Positions 37,889 through 64,000 of a stretch of 64,000 nucleotides of DNA are shown piece by piece. Source of the DNA: an uncultured Acidobacteriota bacterium (GTDB taxonomy: Bacteria > Acidobacteriota > Terriglobia > Terriglobales > Acidobacteriaceae); the NCBI GenBank assembly GCA_963839975.1, contig CAWIXA010000002.1:565949-629948 (forward strand), given 5' to 3'. Position numbers and translations under genes: made by a program. Every line of letters begins with the position of its first letter. Within the stretch, counting starts at the first letter, position 1. Below the pieces are notes generated by a model. It was not told where the DNA came from. It saw nothing but the letters and a program-made list of their open reading frames with translations, and did not search any database.

Positions 37889-39526
37889 ATGGCAATTGCT
37901 GGAACCCGGTTACCGGATACCCGAATGATTTCCACCACACCTACCGAAGTGGTTAACCCCCAGGCTACCGTCGCGGAAGCGGTGGTCGGCGATCCCATGG
38001 ACTTTGGGTCGGGGCCGCGAGGCTGGCTGCGGGCGGGAACATCTTTCCTCGCCGTCCTGACCCTGGTGATGATCGGGATTCAGTACATCTACTCCATGTA
38101 CAAGCCGGACATGAACGATCCGGATATCTGGTGGCACATGCGGAACGCGCAGTATTTGTTCCAGCATCATCAGTTTCCGCGTTTCGACATGTTTTCGTTT
38201 ACGGTGGCTGGGCATCCGTGGATTAACCACGAGTGGCTGAGCGAAGTGCCCTACTATCTTGCGTACCGGGCGTTTGGGCTTGTCGGATTGAAGTCACTTA
38301 CTTTCTTTGTCTTGGACGCAATATTTCTTCTCTTGCTTTACCTCAGCTACCAGGAAAGCCGGAACTTCAAGGCATCGTTCGTGGCGTGCTGTTATTCGAC
38401 GTTCTTGGCCACGGTTTCGTTCGGGCCCCGCACCATTCTTTTCGGCTATGTGTACATGGTGATCTTGCTGATCATCCTGCAGAGGTTTCGCCAGCGCGGA
38501 CAGGCGCCGCTGTGGGCGATCCCAGTGCTGTTCTGCTTGTGGGCGAACACTCACGGGTCGTGGTCGCTGGGGCTGATTCTGTTTTTTCTGATCGCGGCTT
38601 CGGGCTTAGTCGGCGGCACCTGGGGACGAATTGAATCAGTGCACTGGACGCCGCCGCAACTCCGCCAGCTGGTCATCACAGGCTTGGCTTCAATCGCGGC
38701 GTTGTTTGTGAATCCCTTTGGGTGGCGGCTGGTCTATTACCCGTTTGACCTCGCGTTCAAGCAGAAGCTGAACATCACGTCATGTGGCGGAATGGGTATC
38801 GGTGGACTTCCACGACTTGCGCGGCAAGATGGTCCTGATACTCATTCTGGGCCTGCTAGTCAGCGCATTGATTCGGAATCGGCGCTGGAATCTCGGCGAA
38901 GTGTTGGTACTGCTGTTCGGAATCTACAGCGGATTGACCTACATCCGGTTTCTGGTTCTGCTCGGGTATAGTGGCCGCGCCGTTGGTGGCGAGCGCGCTG
39001 GATTTCATTCCCCGGTATCGGCCGCTGGACGACACTCCACGGGTCAATACGGCGGTGATTCTGTTGATGCTGGGCCTGATGGCGTACTTCTGGCCGCGCG
39101 AGGCGAAAGTTGAGAAATCGGTGGCGGAGAGTTATCCCGCGGGAATAATTCCGTATTTGAAGGCGAATCCACCACAAGGGAACGTACTGAATTTTTATTT
39201 GTGGGGTGGATACTTGGGCTGGCACGATCCTGACATGAAGGATTTTGTGGACAGCCGCGTGGATATTTTCGAGTACGAGGGCGTGCTGAAGGACTATCTG
39301 GATTTGCTTGGCGTGGACAATCTCGGACCACAAGCCGGATGCGTTGCTGAACAAGTATAAAATCCAGTACGTGCTCTTCCCTCCCAGCGACAGCGCCAAC
39401 CCCCTTCACGTAGGAGGGCAATTAGTGTACGTTTTGGAACACGACCCGGCTTGGAAGACGTTGTACAAAGATAAGGTCTGCATCCTGCTGGAGCGGCAAA
39501 CTCCGGCAGCCTCCTCTGGCCACTGA
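37889..39526 (+). pseudogene. GT-C-like polytopic membrane protein broken by about 3 frameshifts
   Basis: Four successive ORFs in different frames read as one protein: 37889..38971, 38784..39113, 38971..39360 and 39308..39526. Segments are ...DPDIWWHMRNAQYLF..., VYYPFDLAFKQKLNI / EWVSVDFHDLRGKMVLILILGLL..., / APLVASALDFIPRY...DYLDLLGVD / KPDALLNKYKIQYVLFPPS. Confidence 0.6.
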
Positions 39527-39554
39527 GAAGGAAGTATGTTTTTTCGCAGTCATC

Positions 39555-40005
39555 TTGGATAAGTTGATCTACCCGGTCATCGCGGTGGTGCTACTGGCGA
39601 TCATCTCCTATCGGCCGAAGTATCACCTTCGCGCCGACATGCCTGCAGCGATTTTTCTCGGAGAGCAAATTCCGCTCCGGGCCAGAAGCACGGACTGGAA
39701 CAGAGAATCGCGTCGGCATACTGGGAAAGCGCGCAGATGGATGTGCAGTGGAAGTATCCATATTCGCATCCGTTGCCGCCGGATCCGCCGCCGGAGTTCA
39801 AAATTGATGCTCCGGCGCTGGGCGCGGGTCGCGTCCGATCCAGCGACACAGAGCACTTTACTGGCATCGGTTGCAGCAGGTCTGGTATTCGCCGGAGACG
39901 TGGAACAAAGAGTACGAGTGGGATTGGAACTGGGCCAGCGACCCACTGGCCAACGCCGGCCAGTGGATCCGCGACAGCGTCGGCAAGCTGTTCACGGTTC
40001 ACTAG
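39555..40005 (+). pseudogene. Small membrane-anchored protein, at least 2 frameshifts
   Basis: Frame 0 gives MDKLIYPVIAVVLLAIISYRP (TM). Frame 2 gives LEQRIASAYWESAQMDVQWKYPYSHPLPPDPPPEFKID. Frame 1 gives ALYWHRLQQVWYSPETWNKEYEWDWNWASDPLANAGQWIRDSVGKLFTVH and a stop at 40003..40005. Confidence 0.35.
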
Positions 40006-40017
40006 CGGTTTTGCGGC

Positions 40018-41153
40018 CTACGGGATTGAAGTGACTACGTCAGCCAAAGTCTCGGCGGCGTACACGACTTGCTCGCGGCTCATTTCCGGAAACAGCGGCA
40101 TGCTGAGCACTTCTGCGCAGGCTGTTTCAGTGTGCGGAAGACTGCCGGTTTGTATCCCAGATGCGAGTAGGCCTTTTGGAGATGAACCGGCACCGGATAA
40201 TGCACCGCGGTTTGCACTCCTCTGCGTGCATAGTTCTTCCCTGACGGCGTCACGATTCTGCACCCACGGGGTAAACAAGTGATAGACGCTTTCACATTCT
40301 GGGTCGGTCTGTCGGGAATCCGAATATTGACTTCCGGCAAGACGTTCGCGATAGAGCTTGGCAAATTCCTGCCGCTTGGCGGTCCAGCGATCCAAATATT
40401 TTAGTTTGACGTTGAGCACCGCGCCCTGGAAGCCGTCCATGCGGTAGTTGTAGCCGATGCGGTCGTGAAAGTAGCGCTTCGCTTCGCCGTGACTGCGCAT
40501 CTCGCGGGCAAATTGCGCGACCGCGTCGTCGTTGGTGGTGAGCGCTCCGCCTTCACCGTAGGCACCGAGGTTCTTTGCCGGGATAAAAACTGAACGCTGC
40601 GGCATGCCCGAAGCCTGCCGACTCGCTTGCCGCGGTATCGCGCGCCGTGGGCCTGACAGGCGTCTTCAATCACGATCAAGCTTGTGGCGTTTGGCGATCT
40701 CAAGGATCGCATCCAAATCTGCAGGTCGGCCATAAAGATGAACCGGAACGATCGCCTTGGTCCGTTCTGGTTATCGCGCGCTCGATCAACGCATGGATCA
40801 AGATTGGCGGTGGCAGGATCAATATCAATAAATACCGGAGTCGCGCCGGTGTAAGCAAATCGCCTCGGCGGTGGCGATGAAGGTGTTCGCGGTGGTGATC
40901 ACCTCATCGACCGGGGCCGATACCTGCGCGACAGCAAGCGCAAGATGCAGGGCACTGGTACCTGAATTGAGCGCCACGCAGTGCTTGGTCTCGCAATAAG
41001 CTGGCGAACGACTCCTCAAATCTTGGTTACTTCTTCTCCCAAGATAAATGAGGCGTTCTGACACACGCGATCGATGGCGGCGCAGATTTCGCCGCGCAGT
41101 TCCGCGTATTGGGCCTTCAGATCAAAGTATGGAACGTTCATGCGACTCATCAT
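40018..41153 (-). pseudogene. DegT/DnrJ/EryC1/StrS-family sugar aminotransferase, heavily frameshifted
   Basis: Fragments lie in at least 4 frame segments. They are MSRMNVPYFDLKAQYAELRGEI (start 41141-41153), [55 protein letters not shown]...HDRIGYNYRMDGFQGAVLNVKLKYLD, HYPVPVHLQKAY and SMPLFPEMSREQV. Confidence 0.8.
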
Positions 41154-41274
41154 TATCTCTTACGCAAGACAAAATCGTCTGCAGCAATGCGGCAAACTTA
41201 AAGATTGTTCACTTCTTGGTACCTACTTCTCTCCCGAGTTCGGGTAGATTTAGGAAGATGGTATCCGTCGCTGA

Positions 41275-43036
41275 ATGCTTCTCATCATCGAATGCGGCCT
41301 AGTCGTACTCGCGCTGATAGCGGCGTTTGCCTGTCCGCGATGGGGAGCGGGATGGTTCGAATCGTCTGGAGCGCAATTTCGCTCGACTCTCACGAAGGCG
41401 AACGCTTTCGGTCGTGATTGTCGGCGCGACGGCACTTGGCCTGCGACTCTTGCTTGTTGCCCATCTTACCGATCCCGGATCCAGCGATTCACGATGAGTT
41501 CAGTTATCTGCTCGCCGCTGACACATTCGCGCATGGACGTTTGACCAATCCCACGCACCCGATGTGGATACATTTTGAAACCTTCCACGAGATCCAACAG
41601 CCTACATATGCGTCTATGTACTATCCGGCGCAGGGACTGTTTCTTGCTTTTGGCCAAGTCGTGTTCGGGCATCCTTTTTGGGGAGTGTGGCTGAGCACCG
41701 GACTGATGTGCGCCGCGATCTGCTGGATGCTGCAAGGCTGGCTGGCTCCGCCTTGGGCACTGCTCGGGCGGAATGCTGGCAGTGATCCGGCTCGGCACAT
41801 TCAGTTATTGGATGAATAGTTATTGGGGAGGATCGGTCGCTGCGCTGGGCGGAGCGCTGGTGCTCGGGGCTCTGCCCCAGGATCAAACGTCATCGACGCG
41901 TGCGCGATGCGTTGTTGATGGGCGTCGGCTTCGCGATTGTGGCCAACAGCCGTCCTTATGAAGGACTTTTTCTTCGCGGTTCCGGTCATTGCCGCGCTTC
42001 TTTGGTCGATGCGAAAGCCGAAACGCAGAACGGTCAGCGGATTTCTCTGACGCGGATCATTCTTCCTTTGAGTGCGGTGCTCTTAATGACCGCGGCTTGG
42101 CCATGGGCTACTACTTCTGGCGAGTGACGGGTAACCCATTTCGCACGCCGTTCCAGGTCAACGTCGCGACTTACAGTCCGGTACCGTACTTTCCCTGGCA
42201 GTCGATGAAAGCCGATCCCTGAGTATCACCATTGCGGTGATGCGGGTCTTCTACCTGGGCTGGTGGATGCGGCAGTATGAATTTGGACGGACGCATCCGT
42301 TGCTCTTGTTTCTGCTCAAGAATTGCATTTTCTGGCTTTTCTTTCTGGGACCGTTACTCAGCCTGCCGGTGTTCGCCGTGTGCTTCGTACTACCCTACGG
42401 CATTTCGTTTCGGCAGTTCGGCAGCCGCACTCAGCTGCTCATGTTGGTCTGCGGTTCGGTGCTGTTTGGCGCCTTGCTGCCGGTTTATTTTAACCCTCAC
42501 TACGTTGCTCCTATTACCTGCGCGATCTACGCGCTGATATTGATTGCCCTGAGGAACGTGCGACGATGGAAGCCACGAGGCAAGCCCGCTGGGGTAGCAA
42601 TCGTTCGGTCGGTGCCGCTGATCGCCGTGTTGATGCTGGTTCTGTGCGCGGCCGGTGATTCGAGACAGCAAGGTTCCGCAGTTGGCGACCTGGTACTCAC
42701 CGATCGTTGTGAATTCCTATCGCGCCGGAATCATTGCTCAACTTTCGCAACAACCCGGACAGCACCTGGTGATTGTGCGTTATCGTCCAGACCACGTGCC
42801 CGGTCACGGAATGGGTGTTCAACTCCGCGGATATTGATCGCGCGAAGATTGTCTGGGCACGCGACATGGGCCCAGATCAAAACTCGGAATTGATCCGCTA
42901 CTTTAATCAACGCAAGGTCTGGACAGTAGAGCCCGATTACCTGCCGCCGAAGCTTAGTGAGTACAATCCAGGAGGCGTTTGGGACGAGAAAGAAAGCGGC
43001 GATCACCCGCTAGCCTTCGGAAACGGATCTCGTTAG
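41275..43036 (+). pseudogene. P-family membrane protein, copy P1, with at least 8 frameshifts
   Basis: Pieces in ORFs 41275.., 41418.., 41773.., 41900.., 41989.., 42237.., 42655.. and 42773.. reconstruct a full-length homologue of 60409..62106. Examples are [87 protein letters not shown] and EWVFNSADIDRAKIVWARDMG. Confidence 0.8.
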
Positions 43037-44304
43037 GAGTTCTTTGGATCGTGCGAGTGAAATCGGACCGCGCAGAATCAGCGCCCGTCGAGAGCACACG
43101 CTTGCGCAGCCTTGAGGTCATCCTCGGATTACTGCCGTTGATTCTGGGCTTGCAACTCCTGATTTGGATTGTGTATCTCCCAGCTGCCTTGCGAGGCAAT
43201 GCCGATTTTCGAGCGTACTACTCGGCTGGATACTTAGTGCGATCAGGGCACGCAAATCAACTCTATGATTTCGAGTTGCAGAGGACGGTTCAGAACAATG
43301 TAATTTCGCACTCGACGACTCTGCTTCCATTTATCCACCCACCTCATGAATCCCTGCTTTTCGTTCCGTTTGCATTTTTCCAATATCGCACCGCTTACTG
43401 GTGGTTCTTGGGACTAAATTTGATTTGTATTCTTGTTTGTTACGAATTGCTGCGGCGAAGACTTTGGCGCCTTCACTCCCTGTGGCGGTGGTTACCACTG
43501 CTGCTAATTGTCGGCTTTGCGCCCGTCGCCGCTGCGCTCATGCAAGGCCAGGACTCGCTCATCGTTTTCCTGTTGCTCGCGGCCGCGCTGGCGAATCTGG
43601 AGCGAGGCTGGGACCTAATCGCGGGCATCTTGCTCGGTTTAGGTATTTTCAGGTTCCAGATCGTGCTCCCAATCGCGTTCTTTTTTGTTGTCTGGCGGAG
43701 ATGGCGGTTCCTGGGTGGGTTCTGCATCTCGGCCATCCCTGCATTGGCGCTGTCTGTTTTGGTGGCGGGAACGGCCGGACTGAAGCTGTACATGAGCCTG
43801 CTATTCGATCTCAGCGTCAAACTGACTCCAGCGGGGCAGGCCCTCTATGGCGTGCCCGTTAGCCGGATGCCAAACCTCCGCGGGTTCCTGTTTTCGGTTT
43901 TGCATTTGCAGTCGAGCCACACAATGCTCGCTCTCACTCTCATCCTGTCGTTATTAGTTGTGGTGCTCGGGGGGTGGGCGGGGCGCAACGCTCCTCCCGT
44001 TTGGCAACTCTCCATCGCGATCTCGGCGTCCGTGATTGTTGGATACCACGTTTTAACTCACGACCTCAGCATCTTGCTAATCCCGATGGCGATGCTCCTG
44101 GACCGACAGATCCCCAGAGGCCTGTGGAATATACCGATGGTGTGGCTTTCTACCCCGCTGTGCTTTTTTGCCTACGATTATGTGGTCGCGCTGCCGGTGC
44201 TGTGGTTGTTTGGAGTTCTCGTATCGCAGTGCTGGCGCACCACGACCGACAATACCAGCCCGCCGAAAAATCATTCATCTGTCCCTAAGAGCCAATATTC
44301 TTAA
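42979..44304 (+). CDS. GT87/DUF2029-like polytopic membrane glycosyltransferase (copy a)
   Basis: The ORF is 441 aa. Motifs are GNADFRAYYSAGYLVRSGHANQLYDF and FIHPPHESLLFVPF, with about 10 TM segments. It is a paralogue of 55455..56705 and 62096..63370. The true start may be GTG 43051, just after AGGAG at 43035. Confidence 0.7.
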   Translation: MGRERKRRSPASLRKRISLGVLWIVRVKSDRAESAPVESTRLRSLEVILGLLPLILGLQLLIWIVYLPAALRGNADFRAYYSAGYLVRSGHANQLYDFELQRTVQNNVISHSTTLLPFIHPPHESLLFVPFAFFQYRTAYWWFLGLNLICILVCYELLRRRLWRLHSLWRWLPLLLIVGFAPVAAALMQGQDSLIVFLLLAAALANLERGWDLIAGILLGLGIFRFQIVLPIAFFFVVWRRWRFLGGFCISAIPALALSVLVAGTAGLKLYMSLLFDLSVKLTPAGQALYGVPVSRMPNLRGFLFSVLHLQSSHTMLALTLILSLLVVVLGGWAGRNAPPVWQLSIAISASVIVGYHVLTHDLSILLIPMAMLLDRQIPRGLWNIPMVWLSTPLCFFAYDYVVALPVLWLFGVLVSQCWRTTTDNTSPPKNHSSVPKSQYS

Positions 44305-44528
44305 AAGAGACCTTGTTAACGTCGTTCATCCTGGAGTGGAGGCTGAATCGAGGTGCGCTGTCTCCACTCATTCACGAGGAACGCCCTAACTGAATGCTGC
44401 TGATTGAGTTATGCCTGACGGTGTTGACTTTACCAATGGCATTTCTCGCTTCTCGCCTCGGGGAGTAATGGTTCACACCCATTGAGCGTTGCGTCTCGCG
44501 TTTCGCCGCGCGCCGCAGGCTGGCGGTT

Positions 44529-46112
44529 TTGACTGTTTTTCTTCTCGCCCTAGCTGCGCGCGTCGCAGTGCTGCCTATCGAGCCCATCCCGCAGCCAGCC
44601 GTCCACGATGAGTTCAGCTATCTGCTTATGGCTGACACTTTCGCACACGGACGTGTCACCAATCCCGCTCATCCGATGTGGGTTCACTTTGAAACATTCC
44701 ACGTCAATCAGCTGCCGACCTACAGTTCCATGTACTACCCCGCTCAGGGTTTGTTTCTAGCGCTTGGCCAAGTGGTCCTCGGACATCCGTTCTGGGGAGT
44801 GTGGTTGAGTGTGGGTTTGATGTGTGCAATTTTCTGCTGGGCGCTCCAGGGGTGGATGCCGCCGGGCTGGGCTTTCCTCGGAGGCATTCTCGCGATCATC
44901 CGCCTCGGCACGTTCAGTTATTGGGCGAATAGCTACTGGGGAGGCGCAGTCGCCGCCATCGGAGGAGCACTGGTGCTGGGAGCTTTTCCGAGAATTAAAC
45001 GCCATCGGCGAATTCGCGATGCTTTGATCCTGGGCCTGGGCCTGGCGATTCTTGGAAATAGCCGTCCGTATGAGAGCGTGTTCTATTCGGCACCGATACT
45101 GATTGCCCTCGGGTTGTTCATCTTTCGATCGAACGATCGCGCAGCGTATGCGCGGCGCGCCTTGCTGCCGCTCGGGATCGTCCTGGTGATCGCTCTTTCA
45201 GCAATGGGTTACTACTTCTGGCGATGCACCGGGTCTCCGTTTCGGACCCCATACATGCTGAATATGCGAAGCTACCAAGCTGCCCCGCATTTCCCATGGC
45301 AAGCAATCAAATCCGAGGTTGCCTATCACCATCCAATGATGGAAAAATTCTACCGGGGCTGGGCAATCCAGCAATACCAAGATGTACGTAACGCTCCGGT
45401 GGTCAGCCTGTTCGCTCGAGGACTAAAGGGCGCATCGTTTTTCAGCGGCCCAATTCTTCTGCTTCCATGGCTTGTCCTTGTCGCAATTCTCCCTTACGGG
45501 ATGTCTTTTCGTCAGTTGGGACCCAAGACAGGTCTTTTGGTGAAAATCTGTCTTAGCGCAATCATGGGACTGGCACTGCCGGTTTGGGCAGCACCGCACT
45601 ACGCGGCTCCTCTTTGCTGTGCATTTTACGCACTCGAACTTCAAGCGATTCGGCGGGTTCGCTACTGGGACTTAAATGGCAAGCGAAAGGGACGATTCAT
45701 CACCCGCTACCTGGTTGTCGCTTGTTTTTTCTTGCTGGCGCTCAGAGCGTTTGCGGGAGTTGTGCGCATTCCATTCAATAGCGAACTCGCTCCCGTTTGG
45801 TACGCGGGACGCGATGAAAACGCCAACCGGGCAGAAATATCGAGCTGGCTTGACAGGCAACCCGGCTTACATCTGGTGATAGTGCGATACGACACCAACC
45901 ACAATTCCCTTGAGGAATGGGTTTACAACGGCGCCGATATCGACGCCTCCAAAGTCGTCTGGGCGAGAGACATGGGCGAGGCCAGGAACCAGGAACTCAT
46001 CCGCTATTTCAAAAGTCGCAAGGTCTGGCTATTGGAACCAGATCTCATGCCGCCGAAACTCTCGGTCTATCCAGTGACCCAAGCCGCGAGTGAACGGACA
46101 CCGATGAGATAG
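44529..46112 (+). CDS. P-family membrane protein, copy P2 (N-terminal 45 codons cut off by an in-frame TAA)
   Basis: The track ORF starts at TTG 44529. The same frame upstream from ATG 44394 encodes MLLIELCLTVLTLPMAFLASRLGE-TAA-WFTPIERCVSRFAARRRLAV. This aligns with the N-termini of the other copies. Family motifs are [25 protein letters not shown] and HLVIVRYDTNHNSLEEWVYNGADIDASKVVWARDMG. Confidence 0.8.
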   Translation: MTVFLLALAARVAVLPIEPIPQPAVHDEFSYLLMADTFAHGRVTNPAHPMWVHFETFHVNQLPTYSSMYYPAQGLFLALGQVVLGHPFWGVWLSVGLMCAIFCWALQGWMPPGWAFLGGILAIIRLGTFSYWANSYWGGAVAAIGGALVLGAFPRIKRHRRIRDALILGLGLAILGNSRPYESVFYSAPILIALGLFIFRSNDRAAYARRALLPLGIVLVIALSAMGYYFWRCTGSPFRTPYMLNMRSYQAAPHFPWQAIKSEVAYHHPMMEKFYRGWAIQQYQDVRNAPVVSLFARGLKGASFFSGPILLLPWLVLVAILPYGMSFRQLGPKTGLLVKICLSAIMGLALPVWAAPHYAAPLCCAFYALELQAIRRVRYWDLNGKRKGRFITRYLVVACFFLLALRAFAGVVRIPFNSELAPVWYAGRDENANRAEISSWLDRQPGLHLVIVRYDTNHNSLEEWVYNGADIDASKVVWARDMGEARNQELIRYFKSRKVWLLEPDLMPPKLSVYPVTQAASERTPMR

Positions 46113-46196
46113 CAAAGCAGTTTTGACGAGTCCATGTCACGGTCACGGACTCCGGAAGGAAATGGCATCAGATTGGCCCTGGATGCAACGTCTCAA

Positions 46197-46844
46197 CTAG
46201 CGGGCGGGGTTGCCGCTTTCGCAGAGAGCGATAAAGTGAAGGCCGCGGTCAAAAAACCATGACAACGGGATCGGATAGAGATTCAATTTGAACTTGATCG
46301 CGGTAGCGTGCAGCCCGAACTCTTCGAAGGCAGCGATCCATTTGGACTTAGGCCAATAGTTGTAGGGCAGGGCCACACCGTGGCGGGCATTCCCAACCCA
46401 GTCCATTAAGCGCAGGGTCTCATCCGCAAAGAGTCCGTCGCAGAAGTGGTCCTTGATTATCACTGTTTTACCGACTCGGGCAGCTTCGCGAAGCAAGTTG
46501 CGGGGATCCGCGGTGTGGTGAAGCACATCCACGAACATGACCGCGTCAAAGGTGCGGTCCGGGTATGGAATATTTTCTCCGTCGAAGGAGCGAACTGGAA
46601 TGTGAACCCTGGGCCGAACAAGAGGATCGATGCCTTCGATTTCGATGTCCGGCTTCCGCTCCTTGATGAGGCAATCAATTGTTCCGTCGCCGCAACCAAC
46701 GTCAAGAACTCGAGAGCCGGGTGAAATCAGGCTGGCGAGATGGTCGGCCAATACGCGGGTCCTACGGCTGAAGATAAACTTTTCGTGGACCGTTCCTATG
46801 AGACTCCCTTGGCGTTGTTGGTCAGTCATATTTCTCGTAATCAC
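46197..46844 (-). CDS. Class I SAM-dependent methyltransferase
   Basis: The ORF is 215 aa. Motif I is RVLDVGCGDGT and post-I/II is FDAVMFVDVLHH. It overlaps the 3' end of the upstream GT2 gene, so the two are in the same operon. Confidence 0.85.
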   Translation of the reverse strand: MITRNMTDQQRQGSLIGTVHEKFIFSRRTRVLADHLASLISPGSRVLDVGCGDGTIDCLIKERKPDIEIEGIDPLVRPRVHIPVRSFDGENIPYPDRTFDAVMFVDVLHHTADPRNLLREAARVGKTVIIKDHFCDGLFADETLRLMDWVGNARHGVALPYNYWPKSKWIAAFEEFGLHATAIKFKLNLYPIPLSWFFDRGLHFIALCESGNPAR

Positions 46845-48066: not shown

Positions 48067-48157
48067 TCTGTCCTACTCAACCTACCGTATATATCGCACA
48101 GTCCAGGAGGAATATGCACTACGGTAGCAGACTGATAACCGTTGATACTGTTGCTCA

Positions 48158-51411: not shown

Positions 51412-51452
51412 GAGAAGTGATGCCATGCCCACCCTGCGAGGTCATCTAGCGT

Positions 51453-55385: not shown

Positions 55386-55454
55386 TTCGTCATTCCTCGG
55401 CAGAGTGATGTTTCTGACCCAATTAGTCTAGCCGCAACAACTACTCAGAAAGCG

Positions 55455-56705: not shown

Positions 56706-56929
56706 CTTAATGGTCGGCTATCCGGCAGCAATAACGCCGGCCTGCTCCCGCAGTTCCCTTGCCCTCCCCGGTCCCGACGACGCACGACGCCTACAGTACC
56801 AGACTAGGAACAAAAGCGCAGGTCAATGTAGAAAATGAGAAGCTAATCAATTACTTTGAAGATCGGCGGACCTGTTTGCTCGAGCAGGCAAACAAACGCC
56901 GAAGCTGGGCCGTTGGAGGCCCCCAGTAA

Positions 56930-58720
56930 GTGAGCACAGTCTCCGAAAGTCAATGGCGGATCCAGACATTCGCACCCTCAACCGCGAACTACAGGCTATT
57001 GCGGATCTCTTGTTGGGTTGTGGCCCTGGGTCTCGGCGCAGCCCAGTCCTGGGCGAAGCGTTTCGAAATGGATCCCGACGGCGTATCCTACCTCGACATC
57101 GGGGACGCCTACTGGCGCGGCGATTGGCACAATGCCGTCAATGCATACTGGAGCCCGCTGTACTCGTGGGTTCTTGGTTTTTTCCTCAAGCTGTGCAGAC
57201 CGTCGGCTTATTGGGAATACCCAACCGTCCGTCTGGCCAACTTTCTGATCTACCTGGCCGCGCTCGTGTGCTTCGAGTTTTTTCTGACGACATTCATAAC
57301 ACAGCGCAGACAACGCAGCTTGCAGCTGTTGAATGACGGACAGATGGGGTTGCCGGAATCCGCATGGTGGCTTCTCGGTTACAGTTTGTTTCTTTGTTCA
57401 TCTCTTCTCCTGATCGGCGCGGACCTCGTGACACCCGACATGTGCGTCGCCGCTTTTGTATATTTGGCATCGGCGCTGGTCTTGAAAATTCGAGCCGGCA
57501 GCACTGGCCACCGTACCTTTGTTGCTCTCGGCCTCGTGCTCGGGTTTGCCTATCTGGCTAAAGCTGTCATGTTTCCCTTGGGATTGGTATTTCTTGGCAC
57601 CGCAATATTTGCCAGTAGGCCGTGGCCGAACTGGTTGAGAAATGCGGCGATCGCGACTCTAGCATTTGTGGCGGTCGCGGGCCCGTTTATTGCAGCGATT
57701 TCGTATGCTAAGGGACGAACCACTTTCGGCGACAGCGGACGACTTAACTTCACATGGTGCATTAACGGAGTAGACCCGTGGTATCCGGGTGATGGAGGCC
57801 GAATAATTTGTATTGGCACAGGACGGGTGCAAGACATTGATGGACAATCGGTAGCACTGGCGGGCTCGTTGCGCCATCCGGTAAAGAAGATATTTGATAC
57901 TCCCGCAGCATACTGGTTTGACGAGCCGATCACCGGGACCTATCCGTTTTGGTATGACCCCTCCTACTGGCAGGATGGCGTCAAGGGGCATTTTGATGGG
58001 AGCACGCAACTGTGGACAATAGGCAGAAGCTTCCTGATTTACCTGGACTTGCTCAAGACCGTTTATCTCAATGTCCTCGCGCCGTTCTTAATTCTGTTGC
58101 TTATTTCGTCGGCTCCAATCCGATTCTGGGCGCGTGCGGTTGAGCGTTGGGAGGTTATTGTCCCTTCCGCAACTGCATTCATCTTGTATTCCCTGGTTCA
58201 TACGGAGCCTCGGTATGTTGCAGGCTTCATCGCCATTGTTGGGTTGATCGCGTTTCATGGGTTGCGGTTCCGCGAGTCTCCGGAGTTGCGACGATTTCTG
58301 ACTCTGACATTGTTAGCCGTCGCTGTGACTACGCTTGGATTCACCGGCAGAATAGTCGTTTCCGACGCCATAGCCGCCAGGGGGCTTGCTCCGGTTTACT
58401 GGCTGGTCGCGAAATCTCTGAATGATCACGGTGTGCAGCCGGGAGCAAGAATCGCAACGGTTACACCCGAACCGTTCGGTGCAGGCGGAGCGTTTGTTGG
58501 CAGGCTTGCCAGGCTGCAGATAATCGCGCAGGTGAACCAGCCGGATCGTTTTTGGGCTTCGCCGGCGTCGACCCAATCTGCGGTTCTAGAAGCTTTTCGG
58601 CGAGCGGGATGCGATGGGGTGTTGGGCTGGAAAGTTCCACGTTCTGCATCGGGGTGGCAGAGGCTGGGCCCAACGGAATACTGGTTCTTGAAGCTGGACG
58701 ACCGACCTAAATTGCCGTGA
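56930..58720 (+). CDS. ArnT/PMT-like (GT-C) polytopic membrane glycosyltransferase
   Basis: The ORF is 596 aa. After TM1 comes the acidic loop FEMDPDGVSYLDIGDAYWRGDW, comparable to the first-loop DE...GDW pattern of ArnT-type enzymes. About 11 TM segments and a C-terminal soluble domain follow. Confidence 0.55.
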   Translation: MSTVSESQWRIQTFAPSTANYRLLRISCWVVALGLGAAQSWAKRFEMDPDGVSYLDIGDAYWRGDWHNAVNAYWSPLYSWVLGFFLKLCRPSAYWEYPTVRLANFLIYLAALVCFEFFLTTFITQRRQRSLQLLNDGQMGLPESAWWLLGYSLFLCSSLLLIGADLVTPDMCVAAFVYLASALVLKIRAGSTGHRTFVALGLVLGFAYLAKAVMFPLGLVFLGTAIFASRPWPNWLRNAAIATLAFVAVAGPFIAAISYAKGRTTFGDSGRLNFTWCINGVDPWYPGDGGRIICIGTGRVQDIDGQSVALAGSLRHPVKKIFDTPAAYWFDEPITGTYPFWYDPSYWQDGVKGHFDGSTQLWTIGRSFLIYLDLLKTVYLNVLAPFLILLLISSAPIRFWARAVERWEVIVPSATAFILYSLVHTEPRYVAGFIAIVGLIAFHGLRFRESPELRRFLTLTLLAVAVTTLGFTGRIVVSDAIAARGLAPVYWLVAKSLNDHGVQPGARIATVTPEPFGAGGAFVGRLARLQIIAQVNQPDRFWASPASTQSAVLEAFRRAGCDGVLGWKVPRSASGWQRLGPTEYWFLKLDDRPKLP

Positions 58721-58861
58721 GTCTGATAGCGGCGCAACGCTTTCGAGGGCGTAACCGAATCCGTACCGTTCGACACTAGCCGGCATCCCTCCCCGTCCCG
58801 GGAAAATTGTTTTTGCCCTCCAATGCTCGCTCCGAAGAATGCCTCCGTCAATTCAGTGCAT

Positions 58862-60079
58862 TTATTGTTCGCCAATATAGGTATCCCGGCTGATCCCCAA
58901 CATACTCAAGAACACGGAGGAAAACAAAATCTCGACTCCGAGGAACAAGGAAAGCGAACAGAAGAACACCGTGCGCACAGCCGCGAGACGCCCGAATCCG
59001 CGAGAGGCCCATTGCCAGAAGACGAATGCGTCCCCGGTAAACCCGACCAGCAGAAAGGCCGCGCCCAGCAGGAGTCCGTGCTCCAGCCTTAAACGCTTCA
59101 GCCAGCGCACGAGCGTCTGTTGATTGCGCGCCAATCTTTCCGTGTAGCAAAACACCTTGACGAAAAGACCGATGGAGAAAATATGCATACCCAGCAGGAT
59201 GAGCATCATCGCCAACGACAGAGTATTCACATCCAGTCCCACTCTTCCTGCCAGAACAGGGCCGGGCAGAAGCCAGAGGACAATCCCCAAGCCCAGGGCC
59301 ATGAGGACGCCTCCGGGTAAGAGAAAAAGCCAGTCGGGCGCGGAGAGCATGATGAATCGCAAGTGCCGCCAGCCGTCGCGAAACGTGTTCAGATGCGGTG
59401 GGCGGTCACGCTGCTCCGGCCATGTGGTGATGGGAATCTCCGTGATCTGAGCGCCAGCCTTGGCTGCCTTGATAAGCGATTCCGAGCAAAGCTCGAAACC
59501 ATTCGTGCGCAGATCGAGCTGTTGGGCCAGATCCTTCGACATGCCACGCATGCCGCTGTTCATGTCAGTGACCCGTGCGCCGAAGAAAACATTGATCAGG
59601 GCAGAAAGAACCGGGGTGCCGAGATGCCGATGATGCCATCGCATCGCCCCACGTTTGATTTCGCCCAGGATCCGGCTCCCCAAAACGTAATCGTGGCCCT
59701 GACGCCATTTCGCAACGAAGTTGGGCACCTCGGAGAAATCATGGCTGCCGTCAGCGTCACCGAGAATGATGAAGTCGCCACGGGCTGCCACTATGCCGGC
59801 GCGAACCGCGCTTCCGTATCCCTTGATTTTGGCATGAACGACTCGCGCCCCGTGCGCTTCGGCGATTTCGATCGAACCGTCGGTTGAGCCGTTGTCGGAG
59901 ACGATAACCTCGCCTTCGATTGCATGGGCACGGAATGCGGCAAGAGCTTTGTCAATGCAGGACGCGATGGACCGCACCTCGTTCAGGCACGGGATCACCA
60001 CCGAGACTTCCGGGCGAACGCTGGGGCGCCCACCGGTGGCAGACTGTTCCGAGACGACGGTCTTTAGCGTGGTATCCAT
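58862..60079 (-). CDS. GT2 glycosyltransferase with a C-terminal 4-TM domain (GtrB/ArnC/DPM1-like), copy b
   Basis: Motifs are VSVVIPCLNEVRSI, VIVSDNGSTDGS, IILGDADGSHDF and MRGMSK. It shares the C-terminal TM architecture of copy a. Confidence 0.9.
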   Translation of the reverse strand: MDTTLKTVVSEQSATGGRPSVRPEVSVVIPCLNEVRSIASCIDKALAAFRAHAIEGEVIVSDNGSTDGSIEIAEAHGARVVHAKIKGYGSAVRAGIVAARGDFIILGDADGSHDFSEVPNFVAKWRQGHDYVLGSRILGEIKRGAMRWHHRHLGTPVLSALINVFFGARVTDMNSGMRGMSKDLAQQLDLRTNGFELCSESLIKAAKAGAQITEIPITTWPEQRDRPPHLNTFRDGWRHLRFIMLSAPDWLFLLPGGVLMALGLGIVLWLLPGPVLAGRVGLDVNTLSLAMMLILLGMHIFSIGLFVKVFCYTERLARNQQTLVRWLKRLRLEHGLLLGAAFLLVGFTGDAFVFWQWASRGFGRLAAVRTVFFCSLSLFLGVEILFSSVFLSMLGISRDTYIGEQ

Positions 60080-60157
60080 TAAAACCGAAACAACTATGTC
60101 GGTCCCGCCTAATCAGTTGCAGCCGCCCTGCCACTCGTCAGAATTTGCTGCGGGCGG

Positions 60158-60190
60158 CGAGTAACTCTCAGCCCAGCTGAGGGTTACTCG
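60158..60190 (+). other. 15-bp-stem hairpin in the 329-nt leader or divergent region upstream of P5
   Basis: CGAGTAACTCTCAGC-cca-GCTGAGGGTTACTCG forms 14 Watson-Crick pairs plus one T-G pair. The T-G pair is a G-U wobble only in plus-strand RNA. A second 7-bp stem flanks it: GCCGCCC (60122..60128) with GGGCGGC (60152..60158). Confidence 0.4.
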
Positions 60191-60408
60191 TGAGGGCTGC
60201 AGCTGGTTGCCCCAACAAAACCGATCTGCAGCGCGATGCCTGCCACCAATTGTATTCACCTTGCGGGAAATTATTCTTCCAAAATTGCAGACATCACTCC
60301 GGAGACTGGCATCGACCGGCAATCCCTTTTGCTAATGATTTCATTCGCCACCTAAGGCAGAATAGGAGTGCTTGTAGCGGCAAGTCGATTGATCCCGCTA
60401 ACTAATCC

Positions 60409-62106
60409 ATGTTCCTGGCTCTTGAGCTCTGCTTGACAGCGATTTGCGCGGCACCGGCATTCATTCACCCTGAGCTTGGGGAAGGATGGTTTTCAGCGCT
60501 CGAACGGGGGTTTGCGACATTTGCGCGAAGACGCAGTCTAGCCGTGGTCTCGGTTGGACTGTTGGCCCTGACGCTGCGGCTGGCGTTGCTGCCGATTTTG
60601 CCCGTGCCGCAGCCGGAGGTTCACGACGAGTACAGTTATCTTCTTCTCGCTGACACGCTGGCGCACGGGCGCGTTGCCAATCCTACCCACCCGATGTGGC
60701 AGCACTTTGAGACCTTCCACGAGAACATGCGTCCGACATATGCCTCGATGTATTACCCGGGCCACGGGATCTTTCTGGCATTCGGACAGGTGGTTATGGG
60801 GCATCCATTCTGGGGCGTTTGGCTGAGCTCGGGTCTGATGTGTGCCGCGATTTGCTGGGCGTTGCAAGGCTGGATGCCACCGGGATGGGCCCTCCTTGGA
60901 GGTTGGCTGGCGGTCATTCGCCTGGGGACTTTCAGTTATTGGGCTGACAGCTATTGGGGAGGAACGGTCGCGGCGCTAGGCGGCGCGTTGGTACTCGGAG
61001 CACTACCCAGAATCAAGGGGAGCCAACGAGTGCAGGATGCAGTGATCATGGCAGTGGGAATGGCCATGCTGGCCGTCACCCGGCCTTACGAAGGCCTATT
61101 CTTTTGTATTCCCATCCTGGTTGCGCTCCTTTGGTGGATCATTAATGAACGTGCGCTATCACTGAAGACTTCGTTCGCACGGATCGTGCTACCGATTGTT
61201 CTAGTGATGGCAGCAACGTTCGCTGGTCTTGGTTATTATTTCTGGCGGGTAACCGGAAGCCCGTTCACTACGCCGTATCAAGTGAACATGCGCACTTACG
61301 GGCTGGTGTATTTTCCTTGGCAGAAGATCGGGGAGGTGCCTAAGTTTCATCACGCCGCCATGGAGATGCTGTACCGTGGCGGAGCAGTAGTTGGGATGTA
61401 TCACTTTGCGCGCCTGCACCCGATTCGGCTCCAGATCTCGAAACAGCTCGTCATCTGGCTGTTCTATTTTGGTCCGGTGTTAACACTACCTTGGCTAGCG
61501 TGGCTGTTTACCAGGCCTCGCGGAGAGTTCTGGAAATCGTTCAGTCCTGAGCTTCGCTTTCTGCTGCTGCTCGCGCTGGTGACATCGGTTTCGTTCGCGC
61601 TGACCATCTATGTCGGACAGCCACACTATGCGGCGCCGCTGACCGCGGTTTTCTACGCCGGAACATTACTGGTGATGCGCGATCTGTTCAGCTGGCAATC
61701 GCAAGGCCGAACTTCCGGCAAATTCTTGGTGCGGTCGGTTCCAGCTATTTGCGCGGTCCTCCTGTTGGTGAGGTTGGCTGCGCCAGCCCTGCACATTACG
61801 CCCGCGCCGAGTTGGATTCGCACCTGGTGCTCACAAGACGCGCAAAACCTGGAGCGGGCGCGCCTTCTGAAGCAACTGGAAAACACGCCTGGAGAGCAGC
61901 TTGTGATCGTGCGCTACGGCCCCACGCATGATTTCATACTCAACGAATGGGTGTTCAACAACGCAGACATAGATGGCTCCAAGGTAATTTGGGCGCGTGA
62001 CATGGGGCCTGACAACGCTGAGTTGCTTCAGTATTTCAAAACCAGGAATGTGTGGTTGGTTGAGCCGGACTACAATCCTCCCAGGTTATCGCCCTATGCC
62101 CAATAG
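60409..62106 (+). CDS. P-family membrane protein, copy P5 (intact reference copy)
   Basis: The ORF is 565 aa. Motifs are ILPVPQPEVHDEYSYLLLADTLAHGRVANPTHPMW (HDE at 60622..60630), [29 protein letters not shown] and QLVIVRYGPTHDFILNEWVFNNADIDGSKVIWARDMG. Confidence 0.85.
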   Translation: MFLALELCLTAICAAPAFIHPELGEGWFSALERGFATFARRRSLAVVSVGLLALTLRLALLPILPVPQPEVHDEYSYLLLADTLAHGRVANPTHPMWQHFETFHENMRPTYASMYYPGHGIFLAFGQVVMGHPFWGVWLSSGLMCAAICWALQGWMPPGWALLGGWLAVIRLGTFSYWADSYWGGTVAALGGALVLGALPRIKGSQRVQDAVIMAVGMAMLAVTRPYEGLFFCIPILVALLWWIINERALSLKTSFARIVLPIVLVMAATFAGLGYYFWRVTGSPFTTPYQVNMRTYGLVYFPWQKIGEVPKFHHAAMEMLYRGGAVVGMYHFARLHPIRLQISKQLVIWLFYFGPVLTLPWLAWLFTRPRGEFWKSFSPELRFLLLLALVTSVSFALTIYVGQPHYAAPLTAVFYAGTLLVMRDLFSWQSQGRTSGKFLVRSVPAICAVLLLVRLAAPALHITPAPSWIRTWCSQDAQNLERARLLKQLENTPGEQLVIVRYGPTHDFILNEWVFNNADIDGSKVIWARDMGPDNAELLQYFKTRNVWLVEPDYNPPRLSPYAQ

Positions 62107-63370
62107 CAGCCCCGCTCTGCCCGCCTCCCGCCTGATTTTGGGATTCAACGAGGGCACGCTGGGACTGGTAGCCGCGGCCATTTTCTTGTGTGCCGGGGTG
62201 TTTTGGTCTGCGCGAGGACCGAACGTTGAAAAGACGGATTTTTCTTTGACGTATGTGGGCGCGCGAATTGTGCATCAGGGATTCGGCGCGAGGCTCTACG
62301 ACATCACGTTGCAAAAGCAGATCCGAGACTCGCTCTTCGCGCACCCGAATCCACTCCTGTTTGAGCATCCGCCATTCGAAGCATTACTTTTGGCGCCGCT
62401 GGCGGCACTTCCCTTCCGGACTGCCTATTTGATTTGGGGACTATTTAATGCCACTGTGTGGCTTTCGTTGATCTGGGTCTTGCGGCCCTATCTGCCCACG
62501 CCGCATGAGGATCTTGGGTATCTGTCGCTTTGGCTTTTGTTCGCGCCGCTCGGAGTTGCCGTGTATCAAGGCCAGCCATCGTTATTACTGCTGGCGATCT
62601 ACGCGCTAACGTTTACCAGCCTCAAACGAGAAAATGAGTTTGTTGCCGGCTTGTGCCTGGGGTTAGGTCTTTTCCGGTTTCAGTTCGTGCTGCCTTTCGC
62701 CTTCATCTTTCTCGTTCGAAGGAAGTGGCGATTTCTGGGTGGATTCGGGCTTACTTCTGTATTCGTCGGCCTGCTATCTTTCGTGGCGGTGGGCTGGAGG
62801 GGGATTGTGAGCTACGTCCGACTTTTGTGGACGATCGGCAACAATCCGCAGAATCTGTCTTACGGGTCCGGGGTTGATATGCCCACCATTCACGGGTTTG
62901 TGTACGCCATGTTGGGGAAATCAATTGGCCGGAGCGGGTTGGCGATCACGGTGGCGCTGTTGTCTTTTCTGCTGCTGGCCGCTGTAGCCGTACGTTGGCA
63001 AGCGGTGAGCGAAGATTCGTCGCAAGATGGTTCAAGGTTCAACCTGATGTTTGCGGCAGCTATCGCCGCTTCCCTGCTGTCAGGTTCGCATATGTTTACT
63101 CACGATTTCAGCCCCTTGATGCTGGCGATGTTTCTGGCGGCCGCCGGCTTTTCGAATTCTAGTAAAGCAGGTCATGGGGCTTTGCGCGTTACGATGAAGA
63201 TCACGCTGGTGTTGTTCTGGTTCTTTCCAATCTATTTTCTTTTTGTCGCGTGGCATTGCCTCTACCTTATGTGTCCGGCTCTGTTGCTGTTTGCATATTC
63301 GGCGCTCCTGGGAGCGAAGTATTTAGGCCTGCAGCGGCAAGCTGAGGTAGAGTGCGTAGCAGCGGGATAG
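62096..63370 (+). CDS. GT87/DUF2029-like polytopic membrane glycosyltransferase (copy c)
   Basis: The internal ATG 62096 overlaps the P5 end by 11 nt. Motifs are KTDFSLTYVGARIVHQGFGARLYD, FEHPPFEALLLAPL and GLGLFRFQFVLPFAFIFLVRRKWRF. Confidence 0.7.
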   Translation: MPNSSPALPASRLILGFNEGTLGLVAAAIFLCAGVFWSARGPNVEKTDFSLTYVGARIVHQGFGARLYDITLQKQIRDSLFAHPNPLLFEHPPFEALLLAPLAALPFRTAYLIWGLFNATVWLSLIWVLRPYLPTPHEDLGYLSLWLLFAPLGVAVYQGQPSLLLLAIYALTFTSLKRENEFVAGLCLGLGLFRFQFVLPFAFIFLVRRKWRFLGGFGLTSVFVGLLSFVAVGWRGIVSYVRLLWTIGNNPQNLSYGSGVDMPTIHGFVYAMLGKSIGRSGLAITVALLSFLLLAAVAVRWQAVSEDSSQDGSRFNLMFAAAIAASLLSGSHMFTHDFSPLMLAMFLAAAGFSNSSKAGHGALRVTMKITLVLFWFFPIYFLFVAWHCLYLMCPALLLFAYSALLGAKYLGLQRQAEVECVAAG

Positions 63371-63380
63371 CCGGTATTCG

Positions 63381-64000
63381 ATGCCATCCACTATGCCCAG
63401 CGAACCACGTCTTGACGAGAACGGAGCACAAGGCGGCGTCTTAACACTGGCCAGCCAGACACGAGCAGAACAAGTCATCCCGCTGCTGATCTTCCTGTTT
63501 TCTGTGGCCTACCTTTGCATGTTCCGCCGTTACGCTTCGCTCGAGCCGGATGAAGGGATCGTCCTAGTTGGAGCAGAACGCATCCTTCGCGGTGAAGTTC
63601 CCTACCGCGATTTCTTTTCCTTTTACACTCCAGGGTCTTTTTATCTTGTGGCTCTATTGTTCAGGATTTTCGGCGACTCGCTCGCCGTAGCGCGAATTAG
63701 TTTGGCATTCGCCGGAGCTGCGTGTTCGGTTGTGACCTATCTCTTGTCGCGGCGGGTCTGCCCTCGCAACATCGCGATATTCGCTGCCCTGCTGGCGACC
63801 GTCATCGGTGTGCCTTACAGATTTCTGGTTTTACACAATTGGTACAGCACCGCGCTGGCATGCTTCGCCTTATATGCCGCAGTGCAGTCGCTAGAGACTC
63901 ACAAAACGGCGTGGGCTTTCGCCGTGGGGTCGTTTACTTCACTGACGATCCTTTTCGAGCAATCCAAGGGCGCGGGGCTTCTTCTGGGACTTGGAGTGGG
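63381..64000 (+). CDS. GT39/PMT_2-like (GT-C) membrane glycosyltransferase, N-terminal part (runs off the window)
   Basis: I translated from ATG 63381: MPSTMPSEPRLDENGAQGGVLTLASQTRAEQVIPLLIFLFSVAYLCMFRRYASLEPDEGIVLVGAERILRGEVPYRDFFSFYTPGSFY... The frame stays open to 64000. The EPDEG loop sits after TM1. Confidence 0.55.
   Translation, partial: MPSTMPSEPRLDENGAQGGVLTLASQTRAEQVIPLLIFLFSVAYLCMFRRYASLEPDEGIVLVGAERILRGEVPYRDFFSFYTPGSFYLVALLFRIFGDSLAVARISLAFAGAACSVVTYLLSRRVCPRNIAIFAALLATVIGVPYRFLVLHNWYSTALACFALYAAVQSLETHKTAWAFAVGSFTSLTILFEQSKGAGLLLGLGV

Follow-up and report, generated by a model that had tools for sequence, protein, structure and literature searches.

A conserved acidobacterial gene cluster with a putative role in glycosylation at the periplasmic face of the membrane

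Several systems that decorate or build the cell surface share a three-step scheme: an enzyme of the GT2 class attaches a sugar to polyprenyl phosphate, the loaded lipid is flipped across the membrane, and a glycosyltransferase of the GT-C superfamily transfers the sugar to an acceptor on the outside. This is the logic of the Arn, Gtr and Ppm1/PimE systems. In the Arn pathway, for example, the aminotransferase ArnB, the GT2 enzyme ArnC and the GT-C enzyme ArnT serve to modify lipid A with 4-amino-4-deoxy-L-arabinose (L-Ara4N). Here we describe a locus at positions 37889-64000 of a 64,000-nt stretch of DNA from an uncultured Acidobacteriota bacterium (assembly GCA_963839975.1, contig CAWIXA010000002.1); the whole stretch is called the window, and all coordinates are positions within it. 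The locus follows the logic of Arn, Gtr and Ppm1-PimE and belongs to none of them. We read it, with a probability of roughly 0.7, as a conserved cluster of Acidobacteria (class Terriglobia) devoted to glycosylation at the periplasmic face of the inner membrane with polyprenyl-phosphate-linked sugars. The system would be multi-donor and Arn/PimE-like, with protein, lipopolysaccharide (LPS)/lipid A or a lipoglycan as candidate acceptors. The mechanism class is known; what is new is a pair of families of GT-C fold, here termed P and U2, for which the libraries that we searched have no model.

Acidobacteria rank with the most abundant bacteria of soils, and to our knowledge the chemistry of their envelope is largely uncharted. 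The cluster presents a defined genetic target for learning about this surface chemistry, and thus a testable lead into acidobacterial envelope glycobiology, together with the annotation of a very large protein family.

Genes were called from a six-frame listing of open reading frames (ORFs), combined with all-against-all BLASTP and tblastn, and the products were compared with Pfam, NCBIfam and PDB chains. The locus holds 18 genes in a row, 12 of which encode polytopic membrane proteins:

37889-39526, plus strand: U1, polytopic membrane protein of ~545 aa
39537-40005, plus strand: small ORF, single-pass membrane protein
40024-41152, minus strand: DegT, sugar aminotransferase of the DegT/DnrJ/EryC1 type
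41278-42976, plus strand: P0, P family
42979-44304, plus strand: GT87a, Pfam GT87
44394-46112, plus strand: P1, P family
46197-46844, minus strand: methyltransferase, class-I S-adenosylmethionine (SAM) type, MetW/Methyltransf_23-like (Pfam)
46822-48066, minus strand: GT2a, polyprenyl-phosphate sugar synthase type
48158-49477, minus strand: U2, rare family, GT-C by predicted fold
49672-51411, plus strand: P2, P family, intact, the copy used for the structural model
51453-53165, plus strand: P3, P family, intact
53133-55385, minus strand: membrane/SpeE fusion, Pfam Spermine_synth and NCBIfam NF037959
55455-56705, minus strand: GT87b, Pfam GT87, catalytic Asp replaced
56930-58720, plus strand: U3, divergent PMT_2/ArnT-like GT-C candidate
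58862-60079, minus strand: GT2b, second polyprenyl-phosphate sugar synthase type
60409-62106, plus strand: P4, P family, intact
61997-63370, plus strand: GT87c, Pfam GT87, catalytic Asp present
63360-64000, plus strand: PMT_2 gene, Pfam PMT_2, truncated by the end of the window

The density of GT-C-type genes, 12 in 26 kb, far exceeds that of the rest of the window, and none was found among the ORFs scanned in positions 1-37888. The original prediction, made from the letters and their ORFs, had counted 18 genes and sorted them into classes, and the same count and classes were recovered here. The ORF and hidden Markov model (HMM) census returned all of its five P copies, three GT87 proteins, two ArnT/PMT-like proteins and two unclassified membrane proteins, while Pfam and NCBIfam matches together with transmembrane (TM) segments returned its two GT2 enzymes with a four-helix C-terminus, the SAM methyltransferase and the membrane/SpeE fusion. 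The small ORF at 39537-40005 was absent from its gene list.

The mechanism that we propose would begin in the cytoplasm, where a nucleotide sugar would be tailored by the DegT-type aminotransferase and the methyltransferase(s), to which related loci add a 4,6-dehydratase/epimerase. Two paralogous GT2 enzymes of the DPMS/AglJ/ArnC class, each with a four-helix anchor, would load one or two kinds of sugar onto polyprenyl phosphate, and the lipid-linked sugar would then be flipped across the membrane. Finally, up to twelve GT-C transferases of at least five families (five P, three GT87, two PMT_2-like, U2 and probably U1) would pass the sugar on to extracytoplasmic acceptors, with the chemistry carried out by an Asp or Glu in the first external loop of each enzyme. 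The aminotransferase and methyltransferase genes suggest that the donors are modified sugars. The chemistry of the donors, their flipping, the acceptor and whatever part the SpeE fusion plays are inferences within this scheme.

Among the described systems, Arn resembles the locus in its DegT-family aminotransferase, its ArnC-class GT2 with membrane helices and its ArnT/PMT_2-like GT-C enzyme, the counterparts of which are neighbours here, and the structural searches with P and U2 both matched ArnT itself. However, the locus proteins fall below the NCBIfam cutoffs for ArnB (125 bits vs 631) and ArnC (58 vs 529). In place of the complete A, B, C, D, T, E, F set, only B-, C- and T-like genes are present in the locus, and no ArnA, ArnD or ArnE/F (formyltransferase, deformylase) turned up among the window ORFs scanned. 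The proportions also differ, with 12 GT-C and two GT2 genes here against one of each in Arn.

The mycobacterial Ppm1/PimE/Emb/AftA-D system is alike in that many GT-C paralogues are fed by polyprenyl-phosphate sugars made by GT2 enzymes. The locus has three GT87 genes, two of which keep the D...Y pair that is essential in PimE (PMC12041525). In contrast to that system, the host is a Gram-negative acidobacterium, no sequence match to the GT87 proteins was detected in the PDB, no gene of the phosphatidylinositol mannoside/lipomannan/lipoarabinomannan (PIM/LM/LAM) pathway was found among the genes scanned, and most of the GT-C genes come from families that are absent there. GtrA/GtrB/GtrC shares the three-step logic, and the GT2 enzymes of the locus match the GtrB-like structure 5eke, but the locus lacks a GtrA-like flippase gene, has GT-C proteins unrelated in sequence to the GtrC types, and encodes twelve transferases rather than one. 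GT2a and GT2b find their best matches, both in NCBIfam and in the PDB, among the archaeal AglJ/DPMS enzymes, with alignments that span the catalytic domain and some of the membrane region, although the AglJ scores (132.7 and 127.8) lie far under the cutoff of 325. No signature of STT3/AglB was noted in the alignments of P, U2 and U3, for which no specific search was made.

Challacombe et al. (2011; PMC3174227) counted 26 genes of the COG "ArnT and related" in Solibacter usitatus and 7 in Koribacter, so an expansion of GT-C genes in Acidobacteria is already on record. That paper gives counts only and does not describe clusters, folds or families. Lacking a Pfam domain or an informative name, P and U2 may have been left out of such counts. 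Our literature searches found no description of a cluster of this kind or of the P family.

One line of evidence for the GT-C character of the locus comes from the P family. Three of its five copies (P2, P3 and P4) are intact, while P1 has an early stop and P0 is frameshifted; the copies are 47-53% identical to one another. P1-P4 gave no Pfam or NCBIfam match, and neither the single P2 sequence nor a profile of the P alignment found anything meaningful among PDB chains. A word-indexed search yielded >7600 homologues; a Pfam domain was present in none, and the names given were without exception "hypothetical protein". When representatives at 50% identity were searched exhaustively, 6222 clusters scored E<=1e-3, of which 2276 reached E<=1e-30. 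The alignment of 116 sequences shows conservation of 90% or more at D72, E73 and D81 and complete invariance at T82, N90, R224 and N515; the stretch with D72 and E73 follows a TM helix that comes after an Arg-rich segment. An AlphaFold2 model of P2, with this alignment as input, reached a predicted local distance difference test score (pLDDT) of 94.2 and a predicted TM-score (pTM) of 0.93. Its best 37 matches in a Foldseek search of the PDB were all GT-C proteins, save PIGU of the glycosylphosphatidylinositol (GPI) transamidase (9ub7_B), and included STT3, PglB, AglB, AftA, ArnT, Pmt4, Pmt1, ALG9, ALG12, DPY19 and EmbA/B/C (probability 0.99-1.0, TM-score 0.29-0.49, best E 8.7e-6). Transporters appeared only at probability <=0.25 and TM-score <0.2.

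We assigned families to the GT-C superfamily by a structural match to its core and a conserved acid in the first extracytoplasmic loop, and both were found in P, the latter from the alignment and the distribution of Lys and Arg. As to a lipid-phosphate-linked donor, P genes are linked in the genome to GT2 genes of the polyprenyl-phosphate type. Judged from the model, P is a large family of GT-C fold without a domain model in Pfam or NCBIfam, and it is a candidate new glycosyltransferase family, as assessed against Pfam, NCBIfam and the PDB only. Its recognition as such would better annotate a large block of the "hypothetical proteins" of soil metagenomes. When 67 members were scanned against Pfam, no family spanned the core, and there were scattered single matches to PMT_2, DUF6541 and DUF6056. 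A few long members in this sample carry fusions to tetratricopeptide repeats (TPR; three members) or to a UbiA prenyltransferase domain (one member), which may hint at the type of acceptor and at how the lipid carrier is supplied. The members listed with this observation are P0136, P0155, P0222, P0230, P0239, P0259 and P0268.

U2 is, according to its model, a rare family with a GT-C fold, represented by 35 clusters in a collection of 5.8 billion proteins. It has no Pfam or NCBIfam match and no meaningful sequence match in the PDB. Across 34 aligned sequences, D42 and W44 after the first TM helix are invariant, as are four Cys residues. The AlphaFold model (pLDDT 92.7) gave 11 best Foldseek matches in the PDB that were all GT-C (STT3, ALG12, PglB, AftB, Pmt4, AftA and ALG3), the best at E 5.9e-4 and probability 1.0. 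A core structural match and a conserved Asp after the first helix are thus found in U2 as well. For both P and U2, the GT-C fold seen in the models is first shown here.

The three GT87 proteins are 32-38% identical and score 80.6 (GT87a), 76.7 (GT87b) and 82.3 bits (GT87c) against Pfam GT87 (PF09594; cutoff 25); neither single sequences nor a profile matched any PDB chain. The catalytic base proposed for PimE is D58, and activity is lost in the mutants D58A, D58N and Y62A (PMC12041525). This Asp, with a Tyr four residues later, is kept in GT87a (ADFRAYY) and GT87c (TDFSLTY) and lost in GT87b (AVFRTLY), in which Val replaces the Asp shared by 14 of 15 aligned GT87 proteins (ADF to AVF) and GA stands in place of GQ. 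GT87b may be inactive, repurposed or mechanistically different.

An acidic motif following an early TM helix had been claimed for the membrane proteins as a group. It was found in 11 of the 12; the claim fails for GT87b, with its Val at the near-invariant Asp. Examples are HDEFSY (P), DFxxxY (GT87), DPDGxSYLD, EPDEG, FFGDQW and DPDIWWH. As a test of topology, Lys and Arg were counted in the 15 residues on either side of the TM helix that precedes the motif. There were 3-6 before the helix vs 0 after it in P2, P3 and P4, 3 vs 1 in U2, and 3-4 vs 1 in GT87a and GT87b. Because this excess precedes the helix, the positive-inside rule puts the predicted position of the motif outside the cytoplasm in these six proteins. 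The counts for U1, GT87c and the PMT_2 gene product pointed to neither side, and the helix preceding the motif was not found in U3.

The two GT2 proteins are the predicted loaders. They are 56% identical, score 98.1 (GT2a) and 91.7 bits (GT2b) against Pfam Glycos_transf_2 (PF00535), and have four hydrophobic segments each beyond residue 245; the domain GT2_TM_C (PF26629) is in the precomputed Pfam record of both. Their best sequence matches in the PDB are the Pyrococcus DPMS (5mlz), ArnC (8vxh, 9bhc and 9hwj) and the GtrB-like protein sll0501 (5eke), and the DADGSHD of GT2b aligns over DADLQHP, the DxD motif of PfDPMS 5mlz. The best NCBIfam models were AglJ, dolichyl-phosphate hexose transferase, PpgS and ArnC, all far under their equivalog cutoffs: scores were 132.7 and 127.8 vs 325 for AglJ and 58.2 and 47.4 vs 529 for ArnC, which places neither protein in a named equivalog. 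At the level of sequence the class is clear, namely polyprenyl-phosphate sugar synthases of the DPMS/ArnC/GtrB kind, the scores leaving the sugar unspecified.

The methyltransferase gene and the 3' end of GT2a overlap by 23 nt, and the pair was found again in related loci (L036 and L037/L039, see below). The membrane/SpeE fusion at 53133-55385, which joins a polytopic membrane domain to a spermidine-synthase-like one, scores 93.8 bits (cutoff 40) against NF037959, "fused MFS/spermidine synthase". A second copy, 68% identical, lies elsewhere in the window (28197-30407).

A further line of evidence is conservation. One genome per GTDB species was scanned with a single-protein query for P, and HMMs of the window families were applied within 10 kb of each P gene. 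This yielded 36 P loci, numbered with an L, all in Acidobacteriota (Terriglobales and Bryobacterales). U1 was found near P in 15 of the 36, GT87 in 10, PMT_2 in 6, the methyltransferase in 2, and a GT2 of any kind in 16, of which ~3 had a full-length GT2 with the membrane domain (GT2-TM). Two loci, L024 and L017, carry U1, the small ORF, one to three P genes, two or three GT87 genes and PMT_2. In L024 there are also an upstream sigma-54 activator, as in the window, a dehydratase/epimerase and a short GT2. The small ORF has no Pfam match as a family; its counterparts lie between U1 and the first P gene at L024:9189-9851 and L017:9418-9879. Locus L001 combines a WecE-type aminotransferase (571.8 bits vs 375), an ArnC-like GT2, two PMT_2 genes, a GT87 gene, two P genes and U1.

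The closest match was reached through a U2 homologue, on the forest-soil contig HuN_forest_Scaff2435424 (L037/L039). Its genes run in the order GT87, P, U2, P, SpeE fusion, P and U3, followed by a TylF-type and a MetW-type methyltransferase, two GT2-TM genes, a gene for a 525-aa protein, a short GT2, two dehydratases/epimerases, an intact DegT of 400 aa and a GT87. Orthologues of P0, P1, P3, GT87a, GT87c, U2, U3, the SpeE fusion and the GT2-methyltransferase pair are present in similar order. Identities are 73% between P0 and its positional orthologue on L037, 66% between P1 and the full-length L039_a, 76% between P3 and L039_b, and 53% and 71% between GT87a and GT87c and their orthologues on L037 and L039, respectively. 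The U3 orthologue on L039 scores 833 bits; that of the SpeE fusion scores 1357 bits in the same relative position, by which the fusion is, on sequence comparison, a conserved member of the cluster in a second genome. The 525-aa polytopic protein of this contig (L039:15665-17242) has WDESYY after its first TM helix and adjoins the two GT2-TM genes. It has no Pfam match on record and none among the window-family HMMs, and may represent a further GT-C-like family.

Orthologue pairs between the two genomes (53-76%) are thus more similar than paralogues within either genome (47-53% for P and 32-38% for GT87), so the duplications precede the split of the two genomes, with each of the copies retained since. 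That the paralogues are old and individually kept speaks, in turn, for functions that differ between copies and for a genuine cluster, of which U2, U3 and the SpeE fusion are part. Since the paralogues predate the split and persist as distinct orthologues, each GT-C enzyme probably has its own acceptor or linkage. The original prediction had taken the locus for an amplified form of the Gtr/Arn/Ppm1-PimE logic, and its core is borne out: the models of P and U2 match GT-C folds and neither resembles a transporter, the GT2 enzymes match DPMS/ArnC/GtrB and retain the DxD motif that a polyprenyl-phosphate type was expected to have, and the genes are conserved together in relatives, as on L037/L039 and, for U1 and GT87, at 15 and 10, respectively, of the 36 P loci.

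The remaining members of the putative GT-C set are the PMT_2 gene, U3 and U1. The PMT_2 gene, cut off by the window end, reaches 38.7 bits against Pfam PMT_2 (PF13231; cutoff 26.1), has the motif EPDEG after its first TM helix, and has full-length orthologues of 568-587 aa in the same position at L017 and L024. U3, with the motif DPDGVSYLDIGD, gave nothing meaningful against PDB chains as a single sequence or as a profile. It has 1286 homologues, two of which bear the Joint Genome Institute (JGI) name "ArnT-like", and 32 of 62 sampled members match PMT_2 (E<=0.1, best 2.2e-6). The last TM helix and C-terminal domain of U3 are weakly like those of P (hhalign probability 45%), and profile-profile comparison of the P, U1, U2, U3 and GT87 alignments found nothing significant beyond this likeness. 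U3 is flanked upstream and downstream by two similar C-rich strings, CCCTCCCCGGTCCCG (56748-56770) and CCCTCCCCGTCCCGG (58783-58805), which could be remnants of a flanking repeat.

U1 is a gene of ~545 aa that extends to ~39526, of which the ORF listed earlier (37889-38971, 360 aa) is the first piece only; tblastn with a 552-aa orthologue (L024:7691-9349) found four pieces in frames 2, 3, 1 and 2. Across 16 orthologues from the related loci, the motif DPDIWWH after the first TM helix has invariant D79, W81, W82 and H83, and the C-terminal domain is conserved. No link to Pfam, NCBIfam or the PDB was found for U1 by sequence or profile, nor to the other families by profile-profile comparison (hhalign). 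From its motif and its proximity to P genes, U1 is probably a GT-C member.

Several observations weigh against reading the locus as one glycosylation cluster. No flippase gene was found: the locus has no GtrA- or ArnE/F-like gene, and its intergenic gaps, all <330 bp, are too short to conceal one. The structural matches have modest TM-scores (0.3-0.5), the best E for U2 being no better than 5.9e-4; U3 has no Pfam or NCBIfam match with its own sequence; and U1 is included as a GT-C candidate from its motif and adjacency to P. With the catalytic Asp missing from GT87b and an early stop in P1, not every copy need be active. The locus is divided into ~nine transcription units of alternating direction, and its ten intergenic regions have no common 11-mer, which leaves co-regulation unsupported. 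Finally, most of the 36 P loci carry only part of the gene set, and U2, U3 and the SpeE fusion were near P in none of them.

A variant of our reading, which differs from it in building rather than decorating, is that the GT-C enzymes assemble a periplasmic polymer, each making one linkage of a lipoglycan or polysaccharide. The model would be the mycobacterial Emb/Aft/PimE/Mpt enzymes, which use decaprenyl-phosphate sugars. Several ancient, separately conserved paralogues suit a scheme of this kind, with one linkage per enzyme; the structural matches include AftA, AftB and Emb, and GT87 is the family of PimE. This likeness to Aft/Emb and PimE hints at lipoglycan assembly. One P protein from another source carries a UbiA prenyltransferase domain, and the mycobacterial enzyme that makes the precursor of decaprenylphosphoryl arabinose (DPA) belongs to the UbiA family. 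On the other hand, no primer-forming enzyme, chain-length regulator or exporter was found among the window ORFs scanned, and literature searches yielded no description of such a polymer in Acidobacteria. The three P members with TPR fusions also lean more towards protein acceptors, at which such fusions hint. On balance we consider a polymer-building role unlikely, if well worth keeping in view.

The original prediction had reached the opposite preference, decoration of an existing acceptor, in part from the apparent lack of an intact nucleotide-sugar gene. This "decoration only" argument loses its basis because the DegT gene is probably not dead (see below), and related loci carry an intact DegT together with dehydratases/epimerases.

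Alternatively, the region could be a paralogue-rich neighbourhood in which independent GT-C enzymes of unrelated envelope pathways, such as lipid A modification, protein O-glycosylation and lipoglycan synthesis, have accumulated by tandem duplication and draw on shared pools of polyprenyl-phosphate sugars. The alternating transcription units and the absence of a shared intergenic motif agree with this, as does the variation among the 36 P neighbourhoods, from 15 with U1 to ~3 with a full-length GT2-TM. ArnT-like genes are in any case numerous genome-wide in Acidobacteria, the 26 of Solibacter usitatus being an example (PMC3174227). However, chance would not be expected to preserve, in an unrelated genome and in similar order, a set that includes U2, U3, the SpeE fusion and the GT2-methyltransferase pair. 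Nor would it be expected that orthologue pairs are more alike than paralogues in the same genome, and the GT-C genes are accompanied by dedicated GT2 loaders and sugar-tailoring genes. This explanation is therefore a doubtful one.

It is very improbable that some or all of P, U1 and U2 are not glycosyltransferases, being instead GT-C-fold scaffolds or transport or lipid-handling proteins: they have no sequence-level link to characterised enzymes, the structural matches include PIGU, a GT-C-like subunit without catalytic function, and GT87b shows that copies without the catalytic residue occur, but the acids of the first external loop are near-invariant in 116 P and 34 U2 sequences, transporters were matched by P and U2 only at the low probabilities and TM-scores given above, and the genes are linked to those of polyprenyl-phosphate GT2 enzymes.

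Going beyond the reading of the locus as a periplasmic-face glycosylation cluster, one could propose an assembly system for periplasmic glycans that is specific to Acidobacteria and approaches the complexity of the mycobacterial GT-C enzymes. It would employ at least two undescribed families (P, with >6000 clusters at 50% identity, and U2), two loaders of aminated or methylated sugars, and a SpeE-like enzyme that adds a non-sugar group or aids translocation of the donor. We put this forward tentatively, as a possibility that we would not favour as it stands.

The first four genes of the locus require separate comment. Within 37889-42976 there are ~24 one- or two-base insertions or deletions in U1, the small ORF, DegT and P0, and none in the next 21 kb. 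These were repaired along a Viterbi path whose codon log-odds had been derived from intact window genes; the path introduced 4 corrections in U1, 3 in the small ORF, 7 in DegT and 10 in P0, and none in four control genes; stop codons alone impose at least 3 shifts in U1, at least 4 in DegT and at least 5 in P0. Gene lengths were preserved after repair. The repaired P0 scores 702 bits against the P HMM (736-793 for P1-P4), the repaired U1 scores 615 bits against the U1 HMM, and the repaired DegT scores 279 bits over positions 4-358 of a 360-position Pfam model. Before repair, a DegT fragment (40021-40665) matched Pfam DegT at 3.9e-35 over model positions 170-358. The best NCBIfam match of DegT is PseC, with 190.8 bits, short of the cutoff of 423.5. 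One junction of U1, near 38780, was inspected by eye and consists of one extra base outside a homopolymer.

Because repairs of one or two bases suffice, lengths are kept and the repaired products retain family-level scores, an artefact is judged the likelier cause. The zone is thus probably, though unproven, a local artefact of assembly or consensus, with DegT, U1 and P0 intact in the organism; for the same reasons, true pseudogenes across 37889-42976 were considered less likely. DegT had previously been called dead, and after repair it scores like an intact gene. In the Logan assembly of run ERR12040023, the contig with GT87a begins ~130 bp upstream of that gene (~42847), at the edge of the zone, which fits an assembly problem there without proving one. 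In search of an independent assembly, the exact product of U1 and those of the sigma-54 activator, the latter with three alternative starts, were looked up, without a match. A 5-kb run of apparent pseudogenes such as this one is a warning, most likely being an assembly artefact.

P1, outside this zone, has a different defect, which looks real, as does that of GT87b. The P1 ATG at 44394 is followed 24 codons on by an in-frame TAA (44466-44468), at a position where the paralogues carry a variable residue. The longest ORF restarts at a TTG (44529) inside the first TM helix and encodes 527 aa without the first helix and the amphipathic helix. This 527-aa product is called identically in the Logan assembly of ERR12040023.

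Upstream of the locus and divergent from U1 lies a gene for a sigma-54-dependent response regulator (35914-37569, minus strand), an arrangement also seen at L024. Between the two genes is a -24/-12-like element, TGGCATCTCTATTGC (37662-37676, one mismatch), which faces the regulator and not U1. A search of the window for sigma-54 promoters found 5 matches vs 6.4 expected by chance. Further upstream are Tad-like genes, a TonB-like gene and the second membrane/SpeE fusion.

Three tandem paralogues with weak matches to GPDPase_memb occupy 13580-16419, and are followed, up to 23228, by genes for DUF4129, DUF4350, a MoxR AAA ATPase, DUF58/VWA, a SpoIIM-like protein and an RDD protein; the whole of 13580-23228 is a separate envelope-related cluster. 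Near the start of the window, a gene for an AcrB-type resistance-nodulation-division (RND) pump (558-3723) is split into the ORFs 558-2249 and 2035-3723 by a frameshift near 2127, and downstream of it are genes for an intact membrane-fusion protein and then an outer-membrane factor.

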